64,000 bases of DNA from Escherichia phage KKP 3954. Shown piece by piece: positions 3,429-62,033 of this stretch. The stretch lies in sequence record OR067838.1. The stretch is one strand, 5' to 3'. A program made the translations under genes and the position numbers. A model generated the notes under the pieces. It searched no databases, was not told the DNA's origin, and saw nothing but the letters and a program-made list of their open reading frames with translations. The stretch's first letter is position 1; every line of letters begins with the position of its first letter.

Positions 3429-3642
3429 GCTGTATACGCTCGACAATAATAATAGTTTGCGGGATCTCGTTTTCTACTACTAACAAGGCTTTTTTCTGTG
3501 TGATAGATATTTTAACACGTTGTAAAGTAGCGGTAAAATCTTTCATTTCATTATGCGCGGATTTAGTACAATGCCAGATCTCAGGTTTACCAACTTGCAA
3601 GCCGCGTAAAAATTCCGTTTTACCTGTCTTATTCGTGATCAT
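3406..3642 (-). CDS. Hypothetical early protein
   Basis: ORF track 3406..3651; ATG at 3642. Confidence 0.5.
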   Translation of the reverse strand: MITNKTGKTEFLRGLQVGKPEIWHCTKSAHNEMKDFTATLQRVKISITQKKALLVVENEIPQTIIIVERIQHENRNHY

Positions 3643-6850: not shown

Positions 6851-7063
6851 CTACCATTTGGTATACCCTGTCTCAATGTTAGTAAACACTGTTATCCCGT
6901 CCTGGCGTTCACTCATTAACATACAAGGCGCTAACATCCTTTCTACTGCCTTGCACTCATTATAAGCGGCGGTGATGTCTCCTGCTGCCTTGTCTTCTGT
7001 GGTGAATGTATCGTTTACGTAAACCTGACCAGCAACAACGGCGACAATAGCAAAAGTAATCAT
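6851..7063 (-). CDS. Hypothetical early protein (hydrophobic N-terminus)
   Basis: ORF track; ATG 7063; promoter with -10 inside the hairpin loop at 7085-7135. Confidence 0.55.
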   Translation of the reverse strand: MITFAIVAVVAGQVYVNDTFTTEDKAAGDITAAYNECKAVERMLAPCMLMSERQDGITVFTNIETGYTKW

Positions 7064-9434: not shown

Positions 9435-10254
9435 TCAAAGACTATTTTCAAAGTTTTCTAGGGCGATCCTTTTTTCTTCCTCTGTCGGCTGATAATCAGG
9501 AAAAGCATCAACACACAACAACGGCGGGATCTCTTCATACTCTTCCTCTTCCGTTGTCTCCTCGTCTTCCTCCTGGGCTATGGCTGCAATTTTGGCTAAT
9601 TTTCTCTCCGCTTGAATCAGTTTACCATCAAATACGTTTTTTGCCATGTTGTAAGCGGTCCAGGTGATGCGCTTACTTTCTAGTGCTTCATCAAGCGCCG
9701 CTATCTTGCTGGGGTATTCATCCAGGACACGAAAAGCCGGATCAACTTTGTATACAAGGGATTATCTTTCGCACCGTCGCTCGCATCTTCCGCACTGGAT
9801 AAATCAGCGTTACCATTTGCCAGCCAACCAGGGCGCACATAACGCGCTTTTACGTTGCCGTTACTACGTGCTAATCTGTTACCTATTTGCTCCCCGCTAT
9901 AGCCCGTGGATTCATCGACAAGATAATCAGGAATGATGCGCGGATCATCTGCTTCATGTTTTACCCAAGACTGGATCACATATTCGCGGCCCATATTAAC
10001 CACCTTTTTTTCAACAATCGGCATACTTTAAAAAGACTTGCTGAATCCTTGCAAGGGTAGAAAGATGTACGATAGTCACGTACGCCAACCTTGCGGATCT
10101 CGATGTTCTCGCATGTTGTTTGATCAAAAATATTTATTTCATCACGCCCCCTTATATAAACATAATGGGGATGTATTAACGCATACTTTGCTAATCTGTA
10201 AAAAGCGTTATCCTTGAACGCGATCACGTGACCTTTTAATTTGATGTAAAACAT
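9435..10254 (-). CDS. Hypothetical early protein with acidic C-terminal domain; one gene split into three track ORFs (9976..10254, 9701..10024, 9435..9647) by two apparent 1-nt deletions (T7 run 10005-10011; GTATAC 9750-9755)
   Basis: Only the first ORF has promoter, leader and SD (ATG 10254); the internal ATGs lack an SD; reading continues without stops after a -1 shift at each junction; C-terminus is Glu/Asp-rich. Confidence 0.5.
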
Positions 10255-14311: not shown

Positions 14312-15453
14312 TTAGAACACGCTACCCAGTGTGGTGGAACGTTGTGTTACAGGCTCCAGCACCACTCGCAGAGTGTTACCTGGTGTAGTGCTCGTCACCA
14401 GAATCTTACCACCTTCAATCAGATCACAAGTTAGACCATCACCCGTTGCACATAGATCAATATGTGGATCACCATCTTCGTCCAGGATAACATAACTGTT
14501 GGTTTCCATTGCTTCCACTTCATCATCTTTCAAACTTTGTAGATAGATGTTCAGGGAACAAGCGCCCGACAAAAACTTAGTAGGGGTGAAGTCGTGCCAG
14601 TTATTGATCCAATTCACCTTCAAGGTTTTGCCATTAGCTACGATAGAAGCCACATTCCATTTAGCATCGTTCCCTAAAGAAATACCCATCATTTCAAGAC
14701 ATTCTTTAAAAGTCATTTTTGGATAGAAATTCAATTCTTCTACAATGCCTTGAATAACATCGAAAGACAACTCTGTGCTAACATCCCATAAACGTTGGAA
14801 GTTATCTACGTGCTTTTTATTTACCAAGTTCTTATCCAAGTAATCTAACATAGTTTCACTAGACAGTTTATCGTAATTGAAACTGTAGTAGATACGACTA
14901 GGACGGTTTACAAAATATTCCGAGATATAGCCACTATTTTTAGTGAGGATGTAAAGTTTATTTCCACTTCCTGTTCCATCCAACAAGGTCAACAGTGCTT
15001 CCTGATCTTCTTTCTTAGCGTATACACTTTATCAAACTCGTCAAATAAAACAACAGCACGATCTGTAATTTTACTCATAAATTCTAAGAATCCAGCATCT
15101 GTGTAAGGCTGTGTCACCAAAATGGTTGGAATACCTAAACCTTCTGTGGACATTAGGGACATGCTAATCAGTTTAGCTAACATCGTCTTACCACTGCCCT
15201 TTGTCCCTGTCAGTAACACCCCAGTATTTTTACCTTCTTTACTACGACGAGCAAATGTTTTAATAACATGTGCGGCGCGGTCTTTAGTTTCCCCATAAAG
15301 AGTGTTCGGAAGAGAGAAACTTTCGCCACGCACTAAAGAGTAGTTACCGTGCGGATCGCAGTTGACAACCCAAACTCCAGCAGGAAGTTTATTAGCTTCA
15401 ACACCATATTCCTTATTTACAACAGCCACATCTCCAAAAATAGTGTATTTCAT
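14312..15453 (-). CDS. P-loop NTPase (AAA-type ATPase); split into track ORFs 14989..15507 and 14312..14992 by an apparent 1-nt deletion at GTATAC 15020-15025
   Basis: Walker A GTKGSGKT and Walker B VVLFDEFD; start at ATG 15453 with SD AAGGAG; downstream ORF begins on TTG without an SD and continues in the -1 frame. Confidence 0.55.
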
Positions 15454-19873: not shown

Positions 19874-20076
19874 ATGTTAGTCAGTGAAATACTACCTGAC
19901 TCTAATGGTAATCAGATCACTGTTGATTGGTTTCCTGGTATTAATGGTATACACTAGATCTAACTGCTGAATGGTCTGGTGATATTTATGGAGAAGGTGT
20001 ATTATCATTGTCTACAGAACAAATGATCATCCTTCGTGACTTCTTAATTAGTTTAGATCTAGGAGAAAACAAATGA
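19874..20076 (+). CDS. Small hypothetical protein, apparently interrupted by a 1-nt deletion at GTATAC 19947-19952
   Basis: ATG 19874 with SD AGGAGAG; frame stops at 19955 while the -1 frame runs to a TGA overlapping the next ATG; break window 19945-19954. Confidence 0.4.
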
Positions 20077-38282: not shown

Positions 38283-39079
38283 ATGTCCGAGAAAATCAGC
38301 CTGAAAAAACGTCAAGAAAACCTTGCTTTCTCTCTGAAAAAGAATAAGAACCTGAACGAAGGTAAGATTGTTCTTCGTGTAGCATGTGCTCTAGATATTT
38401 CTGGTAGTATGCATGGTCTATATACTCGTGGGGTAGTGAGTGATTTTGTAGGTAAACTGCTTCCTTTTGGTATGCTGTTCGACGATAATGAACAAATTGA
38501 CATGTGGGCCTTCAATACGAGTTCTCAAGAGCTTACTCCAGCAACAGCAGACGTTTACGATGACTACGTTGGTAAATGTATGCGTAATGTTCGTATCGGA
38601 GGTGGAACAAATTACGCCCCTGTAATGGCAGATATCTACGATGAGTATTTTGGCACTGTTACCAAATATGTTACCACTAAACAAGTGGTATACAAGAGGA
38701 GGCTCCAAAGAAAGGCTTCTTTAATCGTCTGCTTGGTAAAACTGAAACAGTATCGGTAGAGCGTGAAAAAGTTGTAGCTGTATCTGAACCAGGTGCTGAT
38801 GTTACTCCTGGCGTTGTATTCTTCCAGACAGACGGTGAGAATGGTGATCCTAGTGCTGTTCGTCGTCTTATTGAAGAGAATAAGAATAAGCCTATCTATT
38901 GGTTCATGGTTGGCGTTGGTAATGAGAAGTTCAGCTTCCTGAAAGAACTGGCAAATGCTTATGACAATGTTGGTTTTATTGGCATTAAAGATTTAGACTT
39001 GACAGATTCAGAGCTTTATGACAAACTCTTATCTGAAGAGTTCGGAGAGTGGGTTGTTAAAGTAGGTGCTAAAAAATGA
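38283..39079 (+). CDS. von Willebrand factor A (vWA) domain protein, TerY-like; split by an apparent 1-nt deletion at GTATAC 38688-38693
   Basis: MIDAS motif DISGSM in the N-terminal part (track ORF 38283..38759); vWA C-terminal half (VVFFQTDGENGD...WFMVGVGNEKF) continues in the -1 frame to a stop at 39077-39079. Confidence 0.6.
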
Positions 39080-40210: not shown

Positions 40211-40230
40211 GAGGGGGAGAAATCCCCCTC
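40211..40230 (+). terminator. GC hairpin after the TerD gene (possible weak terminator; no clear T-run)
   Basis: GAGGGGGAGAAATCCCCCTC inverted repeat. Confidence 0.3.
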
Positions 40231-47261: not shown

Positions 47262-48056
47262 TTGAGCAAGTTGAACACACTTGATCAATATTACACTAAC
47301 CCCGCTTATGCGGGGTTCTTATGTGATAAGATCAAAGAAATTTTTGGAGAGGAAGCTAACTACGTAGAACCATCTGCGGGAGAAGGAGCTTTCTCTTCTT
47401 GTTTTAAAAACATAACTTCTTTTGATATTGACCCTAAGTTTGAAGATTGTATTGAGGCAGATTTTTTAGCTCAATCTGTTGAGTCTGTTGGTAGTGTAAC
47501 TGCTTTTGTCGGTAATCCTCCATTTGGAAAAAATGCTAGTCTTGCCATTAAATTCTTTAACCATTGTGCTGAAATGCTGGATAACGAAGGTGGTATTTGT
47601 TTTATCTTGCCTCGCACATTTCAAAAAATCTTTTTTGCACACAAACTAAATCCCCATATGCATCTTCTTTACGAAGAAGAATGTCCAAAAGGATCTTTTA
47701 TTCTTCATGGAGAACCTTGGGATGTTCCTTGTGTATTCCAGATATGGATTAAACGCAACGAGAAGCGTTCTCCCGTTGTTTTAGGAGAGAATCGACTATT
47801 CGTATTAGGTAACAGTAAAGACTACGATATAGCCGTTAGGAGAGCGGGAGCAAGTGCAGGTAAAGTGTTATCAGAAGAAGATTCTTTATCTGAAGCATCT
47901 ACCTATTTTTTAAAAGCCTTGACTTCTGATCTTAAAACGCGTATCATTGAGGCTTACCCGTTACTTAAAGCTGAAGCTAGTAAAACTGCGGGAGTAAGAA
48001 GTTTAAGTTTAAAAGAACTTCAGTGGGTTCTGGAGAACATTAGAAAGGAGGAATAG
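47262..48056 (+). CDS. DNA N6-adenine methyltransferase (gamma-class-like)
   Basis: Motif I-like VEPSAGEGAF followed by motif IV GNPPFGKN; TTG start with SD AAGGAGG. Confidence 0.65.
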   Translation: MSKLNTLDQYYTNPAYAGFLCDKIKEIFGEEANYVEPSAGEGAFSSCFKNITSFDIDPKFEDCIEADFLAQSVESVGSVTAFVGNPPFGKNASLAIKFFNHCAEMLDNEGGICFILPRTFQKIFFAHKLNPHMHLLYEEECPKGSFILHGEPWDVPCVFQIWIKRNEKRSPVVLGENRLFVLGNSKDYDIAVRRAGASAGKVLSEEDSLSEASTYFLKALTSDLKTRIIEAYPLLKAEASKTAGVRSLSLKELQWVLENIRKEE

Positions 48057-58083: not shown

Positions 58084-61000
58084 TTAGGTTGTTGGCACAT
58101 CTACTACTGGCGTTGGGCGAATAACCGCAGTATTACCTACAGAAACATTACTGGAATCATTAGGTATGGTTTTAATTCTAACTCCAGCACTTGTAGGCGT
58201 TACAATTGGATCTGCAATGTCTATTTTAACTGGGTTAGTCCACGTATCATTATCTTGATAAGGTGCACGAGTAATAACTGTGTCCAAATCTGCTCCACCT
58301 ACGCCAGCACCAGGAATACGGATACGTGTCCCTGCTGACAGAGGGTAATGATACAACCAAGAAGCATTTGTTGCTGTCCCGTTAGGAGTCAAGTTCTGTG
58401 TCAGGAAGGTATCTCCTGCCTGTGTAGCTCGAATACCGAAAGCTGGGATATCTGGAATATATGCCCCACTTGTTGTTACAAGGAAGAACGTATTATCCGC
58501 CTTGACTATCATATCACCTTTGTCAAACTCTTTCCCTGTTGGGAAATGCATTCCATCAATGTTTCGACTAGGATTAGGCTCTAAGTAATAAACTTTGCCC
58601 GTTGTCCCTACAATAGCTCCAATACCACCTGCGATATTGGTATACATATTAGCTTCAACATTACAGTTGACACGATGAATATCCGAGTAACGGCAACGGC
58701 TCCACTGTGGACGACCAGTAACCATCGTCTTGCCATCTGGGTAACAGTTTACGTTAACCATTTCAAGAACAGATTTTTCTCTACGGAAGAATCCATCATA
58801 AAATGTCCCTGGACCAGATTCAGGTTGACCAACACAATCGAAGATATTACAGGTAATGTTAGACATTGAAAGCCAAGAAGCTATACCGAACAACTGCAAT
58901 GCAGCGCAACGAATATTTTCAAAGCTAACTCTGTTTTCATAACCTGGACCAGCGGAAACTCCCGCAAAAACACGCCCAGTTTTGGTGTGAATGTTACGAA
59001 CAGAATAGTTAAAGCATGGATTTGAAGGTCTGCCCTGTGCCGGAACTACCGGATTACCTTCTTCGTCCAGAACTGCGTTAGTTCCCCACTCCAAATAAAT
59101 CATACGGATATTACTTGCAAGTGTGCTACCGTCTGTTTTAGGCTCTCCATAAACACCGTCAATCGTAAAATCTTTACTTCCATACATTACAACTGCGCCA
59201 GTTGCCAAACCTGTCCCAACAGATACAGTCTGGTCTGGATCGCCATGAATGTTTTCGATAGAGATATTACGACCAACTTCTACATGGACAATCTGACGAC
59301 AACGTTTTGCAAAAACGTTACGAATTGTAATATTCTTGCAATATTGATCATCAGGGATTCCGTAACCATATGGTCCTTTACCAGCTACACCGATACCGAT
59401 ACCCCAGTTGGACAGAGGAATAGGAGCGTTAGTCCCATCGATATTAGACAGGTAAATATTCTCAATCACACAACCATCGTCATAATGTTTATTGATGACG
59501 TTCAGTTCTATTGCATCACCTTGCATGTCCATGAAGGTAAGGTTACGGAAGACACCACGTGTTACTGGTTCCCCTGTTCCTTGTTGAAGGATGCCATACA
59601 ACCCGTTTTTAAAAATACAGTTATCAATTTCAAAAATACCTGATATTGGGTTGCCTTGGAATACCAAGCTACCAACTTGACCTGCGCGAGGAGCACCGTC
59701 CCACAAACAATCGAACATGCGCACAGCACCACCCCAATACATAACACGAGAGTTACGGAAAGTTGTGCCTTCTACTGTAGCATTTTGCACACGATAGTCG
59801 CGTTGACCACGGAACACACCCCCACGCAAAGTGATACCTTGAATATCAAAAGAGCTTGTCGTGAAAGTCATATCGCAACCGTAAGCATCGAGAATCTTGC
59901 TTTTCGAAGCTTTTGCTGCTAACAGTGCCGCTTGGAAAGCTGCTTCTGGTGTGGTATATGTTGTTGTGTTGTTAGCAAATTCTGACAAGTAGACAACATC
60001 GAATAAATCGTTGTATGTTCCACCACGAGGGGTTAACAGTCCTTCTGTATTGGTCAGAACCCATGCATTTGGACCTAATCCACCGCTTGTCTCCAATGTA
60101 TCAGAGGCCAAAATACTTTTTGGTAAACTTCCAGCCCAACGATAACGACCAGCACCACGTCCAATCGTCTGATTTTTAGCTGTCAGAGTTACGTTATTAC
60201 CAAAGCTTGTAGGCAAATGAACAAACTGTCCACGTTCAACAGCTAGTGCAGAAAGATCTACAGACCCCCCAGAATAAGTCATTACTCCAGAAACAGACAA
60301 GGATGTTAAAGTTCCTGTGATGTTAGGAGGTAATGTGTAGGAAGACTGTGCTACTGGATCATACAGAGCTTTAATCCCTGTTAACGATTGACCTGCTGTT
60401 GCGTAAGCCACCTCATCATCTAACAAACCATATTTACGAGCAATAGTTTGCAGAGGGACTTTATCCATGCTTTCTGTTAGTTCTTCCGTTTTTGTTTCTA
60501 AACTAACAAGACGGTTCTCTAGATTAGGATCTGTATCTGCTGAAGCTACGATTTTACCAATATAAGCAAAAAGCTTGTTTGGTAGTCCTGTTGCAGGATC
60601 GTGTCCCAAAGGTTCAGATAAGATGATCTTACTATCTTCTATACGGAAAGCTTCTCCCAGAACCTGAATAACACCGTTGATAGTAACAATAGCACTGTCA
60701 AAAATATAAGGAGGACTAATTACTGTTTCATAACCCGTTGCACCAGAATATACCCACGGGGTGACTTCTGTTGCTAATTGTTCTGTTTTCAGTCCCCACA
60801 ATACCCAGTTATTATCCCCTACTGGAGAATACCTTGCATAGGGATTGGGTTTACCAATGTAGCATTAGGAGCATAATAATAACCGCTCAATACCCCATTC
60901 TGGAAATAACGCAGTTGGTTAAAAACCGTTTCATTTGTGCCTTGCGCCCAATCCAATGGACTTTTAAAGAAAAAGTTGTCAACAAGGGCTTTTCTCAGGG

Positions 61001-61139
61001 TTGGTATCAACCCTGATTCTGTTTCAATACTCTCTGTAGCACTTCCATTAATAACATCATGGAGTTGGTTAGACGAGAAAATAACCAGATCTACGCCCTG
61101 TTCAAGAGACGTTGCTGGATATGTTGGGAATGTTGCCAT
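58084..61139 (-). CDS. Tailspike-like protein (probable beta-helix body), annotated as one gene from track ORFs 60819..61139 (106 aa) and 58084..60801 (905 aa)
   Basis: The 106-aa ORF has SD+ATG; the 905-aa ORF begins on TTG with no SD, 17 nt after the TAG and in the -1 frame, which is open back to 60864; composition fits tailspike/depolymerase proteins. Confidence 0.45.
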
Positions 61140-61142
61140 TAA

Positions 61143-61478
61143 TTACCCCTTATTCTGTATACGTTTAACTATGTCATCTAGCATCATTTGAATAGTAGCA
61201 TTCTTGAGGTCCATAATCTTTTCAATCTTTTGCTCAAGAGTGTTATTATTTGCCATTAATGTAGAGTTAATTTGATTTAGCATCTGGGTAAGTTCGGCTT
61301 TAGTTGCATAAGTTGATTCAACAAAGACCAACTTCTTCTCTAGCTCTCGACTTTTCTCCTCCATTTCCTCAAGATCAGAGCCGAATTTATCCATTTTTTG
61401 TTTGAAAAAGAACCAGATGACTCCGATTAAAGGGATGATTGCATCCTTTGCAAGTCCCCATGCTTCTTGAAATTCCAT
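61143..61478 (-). CDS. Small protein with N-terminal TM segment and coiled coil (tail-associated)
   Basis: ORF track; hydrophobic AIIPLIGVIWFFF then heptad-like region. Confidence 0.5.
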   Translation of the reverse strand: MEFQEAWGLAKDAIIPLIGVIWFFFKQKMDKFGSDLEEMEEKSRELEKKLVFVESTYATKAELTQMLNQINSTLMANNNTLEQKIEKIMDLKNATIQMMLDDIVKRIQNKG

Positions 61479-61487
61479 AGTGATCCC

Positions 61488-62033
61488 TTATTCCGTCGGT
61501 AATGTAGGCCAATCTATAGCGTAAGGATAGTTTTTTTGAAGCGGAACACGGTTTAGTTTAACCACATAAACTTGAAGATTTTTAAGATAAGTTAATTCAT
61601 CTTCAGTAGCCATTTCTAAATCTTTAGCATATTGTAAAGGTGTTATAAGTGCTACCGCTGTTTCTTGTAAAGAGCGAATCTTTGCACTAGCTTGTGTCAT
61701 CAACTCTTCACGGGAATACTCTTTATCCTTAAGAGTTAAGGTTTCTAAATCCAAAACCTTGTTCCTAATATCCTCAAAAGTATCTATATTAAAGTCTACT
61801 TGTGCTATAGAAAGATCTTCAGGGCAAAGTAGTGTAGGATCAGTATTCCAAAACACAATACGATTTTGATCATCAAAAACGACTTTCATTTTGTCGTTAT
61901 TGAATTCTGTGCTACGTAAATCATACCAATCGTAACCTTGATCACAACGAAGGAAAAGAATGTTCTCTGCTTCTACCAATTCTTTTAGTTCAGGATCTTC
62001 AGGAATATACTTTTTAAAATTTGTAAATATCAT
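61488..62033 (-). CDS. Hypothetical tail-associated protein
   Basis: ORF track; tail-module context. Confidence 0.5.
   Translation of the reverse strand: MIFTNFKKYIPEDPELKELVEAENILFLRCDQGYDWYDLRSTEFNNDKMKVVFDDQNRIVFWNTDPTLLCPEDLSIAQVDFNIDTFEDIRNKVLDLETLTLKDKEYSREELMTQASAKIRSLQETAVALITPLQYAKDLEMATEDELTYLKNLQVYVVKLNRVPLQKNYPYAIDWPTLPTE

Follow-up and report, generated by a model that had tools for sequence, protein, structure and literature searches.

Escherichia phage KKP 3954 (sequence record OR067838.1) is represented here by a window of 64,000 nucleotides (nt), which is Phapecoctavirus DNA and approximately 98% identical to ESCO13, Ro121c4YLVW, 536P1, and similar genomes of the genus. On the minus strand of this window, a tailspike gene is read as two open reading frames (ORFs), ORF1 of 106 amino acids (aa) and ORF2 of 905 aa (Table 1), and the origin of this split is the subject of the present analysis. 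In the deposited annotation, the ORFs appear as two hypothetical proteins, each of which was traced by exact protein look-up to KKP 3954 and to one contig of 149,856 bp. ORF1 ends in a TAG stop codon at 60821-60819, and ORF2 begins with a TTG codon at 60801, with 17 nt in between. Relative to ORF1, ORF2 is shifted into the -1 frame, which on translation is open back to 60864. These features had been described in the same way by the original prediction, which was made from the sequence alone, and are confirmed from the sequence, as is its statement that the TTG start lacks a Shine-Dalgarno sequence. The sequence 5′ of the TTG reads TAGGGGATAATAACTGGGTA, with a GGGG run 13 nt away and a TGGG 3 nt away. 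Because the former is too distant and the latter is weak, the TTG of ORF2 has no credible Shine-Dalgarno sequence.

In related phages, drawn from a collection that does not include the KKP 3954 record itself, the two ORFs form one gene. A single coding sequence of 3054 nt, encoding a 1017-aa "colanic acid-degrading protein," is present in phAPEC8_ev052, Ro121c4YLVW, and ESCO13, and the order of genes around it, in the lateral tail-fibre cluster, is shared by the window with these three phages and with the phi92-like phage PD114. When a construct with the merged junction was searched by tblastn, it was matched by one unbroken high-scoring segment pair in 70 records, including those of phi92-like phages at 78% identity. 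Both ORFs of the window also fall into one 90%-identity cluster of 169 members, nearly all of which, among those read, are 1017 aa long. The conserved motif NPIPMQG-TPVGDNNW runs uninterrupted across the break, and its more general form, NPxxMGxxPxxDxNW, is conserved in distant homologs and crosses the stop codon and spacer of the window. Over the spacer segment, the sequence of the relatives is MQGTPVGDNNWVLW. An exhaustive HMMER search for homologs of ORF1 returned 353 clusters. Among the best 149 of these 353, the domain is always located at residues ~1-104, the proteins of 116 clusters are at least 500 aa long, and those of 5 are shorter than 130 aa. A word-indexed protein search with the 106-aa ORF matched just two short metagenomic fragments, an uninformative result. 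By these comparisons, ORF1 is the N-terminal module of the spike and not a stand-alone adaptor. The proposal that the two ORFs belong together, as a single tailspike anchored through its N-terminal domain, is therefore borne out by the single 1017-aa protein of the relatives, by the motif that spans the break, and by the homologs of ORF1, most of which are long proteins with this domain at the N-terminus.

Homology further identifies the product of the intact gene. ORF1 matches PHROG 4549, "tail fiber protein" (E=3e-22), and ORF2 matches PHROG 6117, "colanic acid degradation" (E=4e-281). The intact protein resembles two kinds of known spike: over residues 226-372, the N-terminal domains of CBA120 TSP and G7C gp63.1 (and the Pfam family Tail_spike_N), and over residues 426-1000, PDB 6e0v, the phi92 gp150 colanidase (E=1.4e-79). 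Judged from these matches, both ORFs are parts of one gene for a predicted colanic acid-degrading tailspike of the phi92 gp150 type, of ~110 kDa, a gene that is already known. The layout of the protein would comprise an N-terminal domain (residues 1-~115) common to many tail-fibre and tailspike proteins, a linker, the CBA120/G7C-type domains (~226-372), and a right-handed β-helix glycanase (~426-1000). Since the N-terminal domain is conserved on proteins with variable distal parts, an attachment role can be proposed for it, in which it would fasten the spike trimer to the baseplate or to the network of fibres. The β-helix glycanase would cut the colanic acid capsule, giving the phage access to the outer membrane; the activity itself is known for phi92 gp150 only, which is cited as cleaving the β-1,4 Glc-Fuc bond of colanic acid (PMC13450770).

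The closest known counterpart is the colanic acid-degrading protein of phAPEC8 and other Phapecoctavirus (AFU62749.1 and AVZ45312.1; 1017 aa), which occupies the same locus with the same neighbors, namely a tail fibre assembly protein, an upstream 111-aa lipoprotein-like ORF, and a downstream collagen-like tail fibre. Unlike the phAPEC8 allele, the gene of the window is broken by two extra nucleotides and annotated as two hypothetical proteins. phi92 gp150 (PDB 6E0V/6E0W) has a homologous β-helix catalytic domain, and phi92-like phages share 78% identity over the first 200 residues, but the phi92-type protein has ~804 aa and is without part of the middle region present in the Phapecoctavirus version. 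The N-terminal domains of G7C gp63.1/gp66 and CBA120 TSP1-4 match residues 226-372; in G7C and CBA120, however, the attachment modules reside within separate conserved genes, whereas in every relative the Phapecoctavirus anchor and the spike form one covalent chain.

Alignment to the relatives shows that the gene is split by a 2-nt insertion (Table 1), with GGTACTCC in the closest relatives compared with GGTATTCTCC in the window. At the junction, the relatives read ATG CAA GGT(/GGG) ACT CCA GTA GGA GAT AAC AAC TGG, which encodes MQGTPVGDNNW, and the window reads ATGCAAGGTA-TT-CTCCAGTAGGGG. The two extra bases are held within a minus-strand GTATTC at 60832-60827 that aligns with GTAC of the closest relatives, and GTAC is found at the exact insertion point in DIJ07P1 and phAPEC8_ev052, the relatives that are closest in that segment. 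Residues 1-103 of ORF1 are authentic, and its final ILQ and stop codon are products of the frameshift. As deposited, the frameshift keeps the anchor and the enzyme from being joined in a single polypeptide; after removal of the 2 nt, they are joined in a 1017-aa translation without an internal stop. This protein differs from P0004, the commonest wild-type allele (106 contigs, including phAPEC8), only at T501I and T508I, and it becomes 100% identical to the phAPEC8 allele once the two GTAC-site changes responsible are also reverted. The original prediction had placed a small disrupting indel within 60822-60864, and this location holds, although the alignment shows a 2-nt insertion and not the 1-nt deletion that had been proposed. 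It had also remarked that no GTATAC occurs in 60822-60864, which is literally correct but missed that the site is GTAC in relatives and so belongs to a genome-wide GTAC anomaly.

The insertion is peculiar to KKP 3954 among the sequences searched. It was found in 0 of 42 records, as all megablast matches to the 201-nt junction span 199 nt, and the insertion allele had no match in IMG/VR or in the metagenomes of JGI; the wild-type junction allele had one match in IMG/VR. All three GTAC sites of the tailspike gene are altered in the window, one to GTATTC with a gain of 2 nt and two to GTAT (gene strand). The gene contains 11 window-only substitutions, of which 9 are synonymous and 2 non-synonymous, and both of the latter lie at GTAC sites, so that all 9 window-only changes outside GTAC sites are synonymous. 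Its insertion is the sole coding indel relative to ESCO13 within the 25 kb that surround the tailspike gene. Three other indels relative to ESCO13 in those 25 kb lie in intergenic G/C runs at 40213, 41508, and 58070, where the run lengths are G5 in the window vs. G6 in ESCO13, G4 vs. G5, and C5 vs. C7; the C-run is within a GAGGGGGAAT-CCCCCTC hairpin between the tailspike gene and the collagen-like fibre gene. These intergenic differences could be homopolymer under-calls or natural variation.

Table 1. Features of the tailspike locus, altered GTAC sites, and other genes discussed in the text (positions in the 64,000-nt window).
Feature	Position	Strand	Remarks
Whole gene of the predicted colanic acid-degrading tailspike	58084-61139	minus	3056 nt here vs. 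3054 nt / 1017 aa in relatives
Shine-Dalgarno AAGGGG of the intact gene	61146-61151	minus	6 nt upstream of the ATG at 61139; read from the sequence
ORF1, 106 aa (WLW41405.1)	60819-61139	minus	ATG start; N-terminal anchor-type domain of the tailspike
ORF2, 905 aa (WLW41404.1)	58084-60801	minus	TTG start; equals residues 113-1017 of the intact tailspike
Apparent 17-nt spacer	60802-60818	minus	In the ORF2 frame, with the bases back to the insertion, encodes the conserved PVGDNNWV segment
2-nt insertion	60828-60829	minus	TT on the gene strand, AA on the plus strand; cause of the frameshift; from alignments to relatives
Junction-spanning peptide segment expected of the intact protein			NPIPMQGTPVGDNNW
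Two more GTAC sites of the gene	59615-59639	minus	Plus strand ATAC, G to A at 59615 and 59636; give T501I and T508I
ATAC where relatives have GTAC (examples)	6641, 7783, 9537, 9632, 27207, 28086, 35725, 40410, 53393, 53564, 54017, 55172, 55604, 56596, 59615, 59636, 61159, 62049, 62647		
GTAT where relatives have GTAC (examples)	2151, 5057, 5174, 11753, 12370, 17298, 19815, 19938, 20603, 63127, 63165		
Six 2-nt insertions, GTAC to GTATAC	3433-3434, 6862-6863, 9751-9752, 15021-15022, 19948-19949, 38689-38690		
Candidate NPPF-type DNA methyltransferase, 264 aa	47262-48053	plus	Motifs I (EPSAGEGAF) and IV (VGNPPFG); PHROG 799, E=1e-10
Collagen-repeat tail fibre gene, 674 aa	55998-58022	minus	PHROG 15437
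Assembly chaperone of the 353-aa short tail fibre	61488-62033		PHROG 136
Mu GpS-like short tail fibre gene, 353 aa	62034-63095	minus	PHROG 4465

The alteration of GTAC extends across the window. The three relatives ESCO13, 536P1, and DIJ07P1 share 40 conserved GTAC sites, of which 14 are kept in the window and 65% are changed, the 26 changed sites having become ATAC (15), GTAT (7, range 7-9), GTATAC (3, range 3-4), or another sequence (1). Over all tetramers, the median proportion of changed sites is 3.9%, and the next worst after GTAC reaches 14%. The window as a whole contains 37 GTAC, compared with 63-71 in the relatives, and 26 GTATAC, compared with 14-18. Control motifs were changed at low rates, with 3.1% for Dam GATC, 7.9% for Dcm CCWGG, 2.8% for NTAC with a first base other than G, and 2.4% for GTAN with a last base other than C. 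A general mutational effect of the TAC or GTA context and an effect of Dam or Dcm are ruled out by these values, as the full GTAC tetramer alone is affected.

The changes at GTAC sites are almost entirely G to A, C to T, or a 2-nt insertion that yields GTATAC, and they ignore coding. Substitutions at these sites are 18 non-synonymous to 13 synonymous, compared with 292 to 840 for all other differences (Fisher p=2.4e-4). ACN to ATN (T to I) and TGT to TAT (C to Y) changes are found at GTAC sites where a synonymous xGT to xGC change would equally abolish the site. Several of the T to I and C to Y residues in the neighboring collagen-repeat and short tail fibres are GTAC-site changes of this kind. 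Six GTAC sites have become GTATAC through 2-nt insertions, several of which split or truncate ORFs that are whole in the relatives: the insertion at 15021 divides a 379-aa ATPase-like gene with Walker A/B motifs into 172 and 226 aa, that at 38689 shortens from 264 to 158 aa a gene whose product bears a DxSGS (vWA-like) motif, and that at 9751 shortens a 188-aa gene to 107 aa. These six insertions probably have the same cause as the split of the tailspike gene.

A second record shows the same anomaly. The sequence of Escherichia phage BI-EHEC (OL505078.1), another Phapecoctavirus, is a Nanopore-only assembly, produced with Guppy 4.0.11, Flye, and Medaka without the aid of short reads (PMC8686590), and it was compared with the window over the 25 kb homologous to 39001-64000. 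Its most-changed tetramer is likewise GTAC, with 4 of 13 sites altered against a median of 1.9%, and four of its altered sites bear the alleles of the window. Among 63 records, BI-EHEC is the only one that shares the allele at 59636, and the allele at 59615 is found in none. Common ancestry as the source of the alleles was considered and ruled out, as the ±200-nt flanks of the common alleles in BI-EHEC are no nearer to the window than are those of ESCO13. BI-EHEC has only two private indels; in each, a single nucleotide has been added right behind GTAC (CCGTAC[T]CACC), and they would frameshift its 891-aa tail-fibre gene.

A technical artefact, which was not weighed in the original prediction, is the most likely cause of the split, and there is good reason to regard it as a base-calling artefact at a GTAC motif that is probably modified. 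This interpretation is favored by the corruption of GTAC sites over the whole KKP 3954 record and by identical changes, confined to the motif and independent of ancestry, that recur in the Nanopore-only BI-EHEC assembly. In the proposed course of events, GTAC would be base-modified in the phage DNA, and KKP 3954 would have been read on a modification-sensitive platform. The nanopore signal at the palindromic modified GTAC would then be miscalled as ATAC, GTAT, GTATAC, or, in the tailspike gene, GTATTC. If C is read as T in a strand-specific manner at the palindrome, one strand would be called GTAT and its complement ATAC, and the merging of both strands in the consensus may yield insertions of the GTATAC type. 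The real phage would make an intact 1017-aa spike.

Errors of this nature have a precedent, as Nanopore consensus errors are known to cluster in methylation motifs such as Dcm CCWGG (Wick et al., 2019; PMC6591954). Like the Dcm-site errors, the changes described here are motif-specific, mostly C to T or G to A, coding-blind, and recurrent in an independent Nanopore-only assembly. They differ from them in that the motif is GTAC, that 2-nt insertions occur at the palindrome, and that the nanopore origin of KKP 3954 is presumed. Three marks by which such an artefact can be recognized were found, namely concentration of change in a motif, blindness to coding, and the same errors in an independent assembly from a modification-sensitive platform but not in other records. 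Several points weigh on the other side. A literature search found no statement of the platform and no reads for KKP 3954, and it likewise found no documentation of GTAC modification in Phapecoctavirus. The methyltransferases that could be considered are candidates, and the 264-aa one has no match in Pfam, NCBIfam, or PDB. The insertion in the tailspike gene gives GTATTC and not the GTATAC of the six other insertion sites, and the genes with 2-nt insertions are all accessory or function-unassigned, so real insertions need not have been lethal.

If the insertion is real, the colanidase tailspike gene of KKP 3954 was frameshifted by mutation, either in nature or in the laboratory, an explanation that is unlikely but has arguments of its own. 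The 103-residue anchor stub could still fill the docking site, while the 905-aa catalytic part would be anchorless, poorly made (at best through termination-reinitiation at the TTG), and not incorporated into the virion. Colanic acid degradation would be lost, which would be dispensable on non-mucoid laboratory hosts. The deposited sequence does contain the insertion and is annotated with two proteins, and capsule tailspikes are dispensable on K-12-type hosts, on which, according to the BASEL work, these phages use enterobacterial common antigen (ECA) and the lipopolysaccharide (LPS) core (PMC8594841). The restriction of 2-nt insertions to accessory or function-unassigned genes fits real mutations as well, and so does the record of Escherichia phage vB_EcoM_EP57 (P0006 / P0011), another Phapecoctavirus, in which the tailspike gene is also fragmented at other positions, with residues 1-170 and 536-1017 being present. 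EP57 was ruled out as a second case of breakage at GTAC, as its fragments end near 170 and restart at 536, which are not GTAC sites. What argues against a real insertion is that the lesion and the only two amino acid changes of the gene all fall at GTAC sites, that the same class of change affects GTAC sites across the window without regard to coding, and that the same alleles appear in a Nanopore-only assembly without common flanking ancestry. Furthermore, the gene bears no other sign of decay, given the absence of non-synonymous changes outside its GTAC sites. It is also conceivable, with a lower probability still, that the GTAC changes at large are real. GTAC sites would then be subject to a rapid, coding-blind purge in the lineage of KKP 3954 and, more weakly, in BI-EHEC. 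The driver would be a restriction enzyme specific for GTAC or a defence that damages DNA at particular sites, the purge would proceed through G to A transitions and 2-nt duplications such as the filling-in of a G^TAC cut should leave, and the colanidase tailspike and several accessory genes would have been lost as collateral damage.

Explanations in which the two ORFs function as they stand fare considerably worse. The original prediction had offered the alternative of a separate adaptor and an atypically started large ORF. Branched systems of adaptor and spike do exist in G7C and in Ackermannviridae, and ORF2 has domains of that type. Yet no relative shows this split, 116 of the 149 best clusters have the ORF1 domain at the N-terminus of long proteins, with the few short ones looking like fragments, and the coding of a conserved motif continues through the stop codon and the 17-nt spacer. 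As ORF1 also ends in three residues derived from the frameshift and the TTG of ORF2 is without a Shine-Dalgarno sequence, a functional pair of a stand-alone 106-aa adaptor and a tailspike translated from the TTG is very improbable and is contradicted by the comparisons with relatives. Programmed -1 ribosomal frameshifting, or another form of recoding that joins both ORFs, has even less to recommend it and can be given hardly any credence. The overlap does contain a heptamer, A_AAC_CCA at 60852-60846 in the ORF1 frame, that formally conforms to X_XXY_YYZ. However, relatives with an uninterrupted gene have this weak heptamer as well, slippage on it would replace eight conserved residues, and the need for a frameshift is unique to the KKP 3954 record, the two-frame arrangement occurring in no relative. 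Moreover, no unusual downstream RNA structure was detected (fold z = -0.93), and no homopolymer is suited to transcriptional slippage.

If GTAC is modified by the phage itself, as the base-calling interpretation would allow, candidate enzymes can be named. The 264-aa NPPF-type ORF at 47262-48053 is situated just upstream of the DNA polymerase gene, and a 169-aa paralog-like ORF, which lies outside the window in relatives, matches PHROG 799, "DNA methyltransferase" (E=3e-59). Both PHROG 799 ORFs are candidates for phage-encoded DNA modification, and the putative GTAC modification is possibly made by the NPPF-motif protein or by its 169-aa paralog. In the 149-kb genome of 536P1, a clean relative, GTAC is approximately three-fold under-represented, with 137 GTAC compared with 434 CATG, 446 ACGT, and 785 TGCA. 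This composition suggests long-term avoidance of GTAC-specific restriction in the Phapecoctavirus group.

Most probably, the split of the tailspike gene does not exist in the phage itself, and short of resequencing it should not be taken to indicate a new adaptor-plus-spike architecture, a recoding site, or a mutation of host range. Systematic errors at GTAC sites run through the record of KKP 3954 and, less markedly, that of BI-EHEC, and they lead to false frameshifts and false T to I and C to Y changes. The affected genes include tail fibres, and T to I or C to Y differences at GTAC sites are not to be treated as receptor-binding variation; annotation, comparisons of receptor-binding proteins, and depolymerase catalogs that use these records inherit the errors. 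At the same time, the pattern of errors may reveal a hitherto undescribed GTAC-specific base modification in Phapecoctavirus DNA, for which it constitutes indirect evidence and a testable hint.

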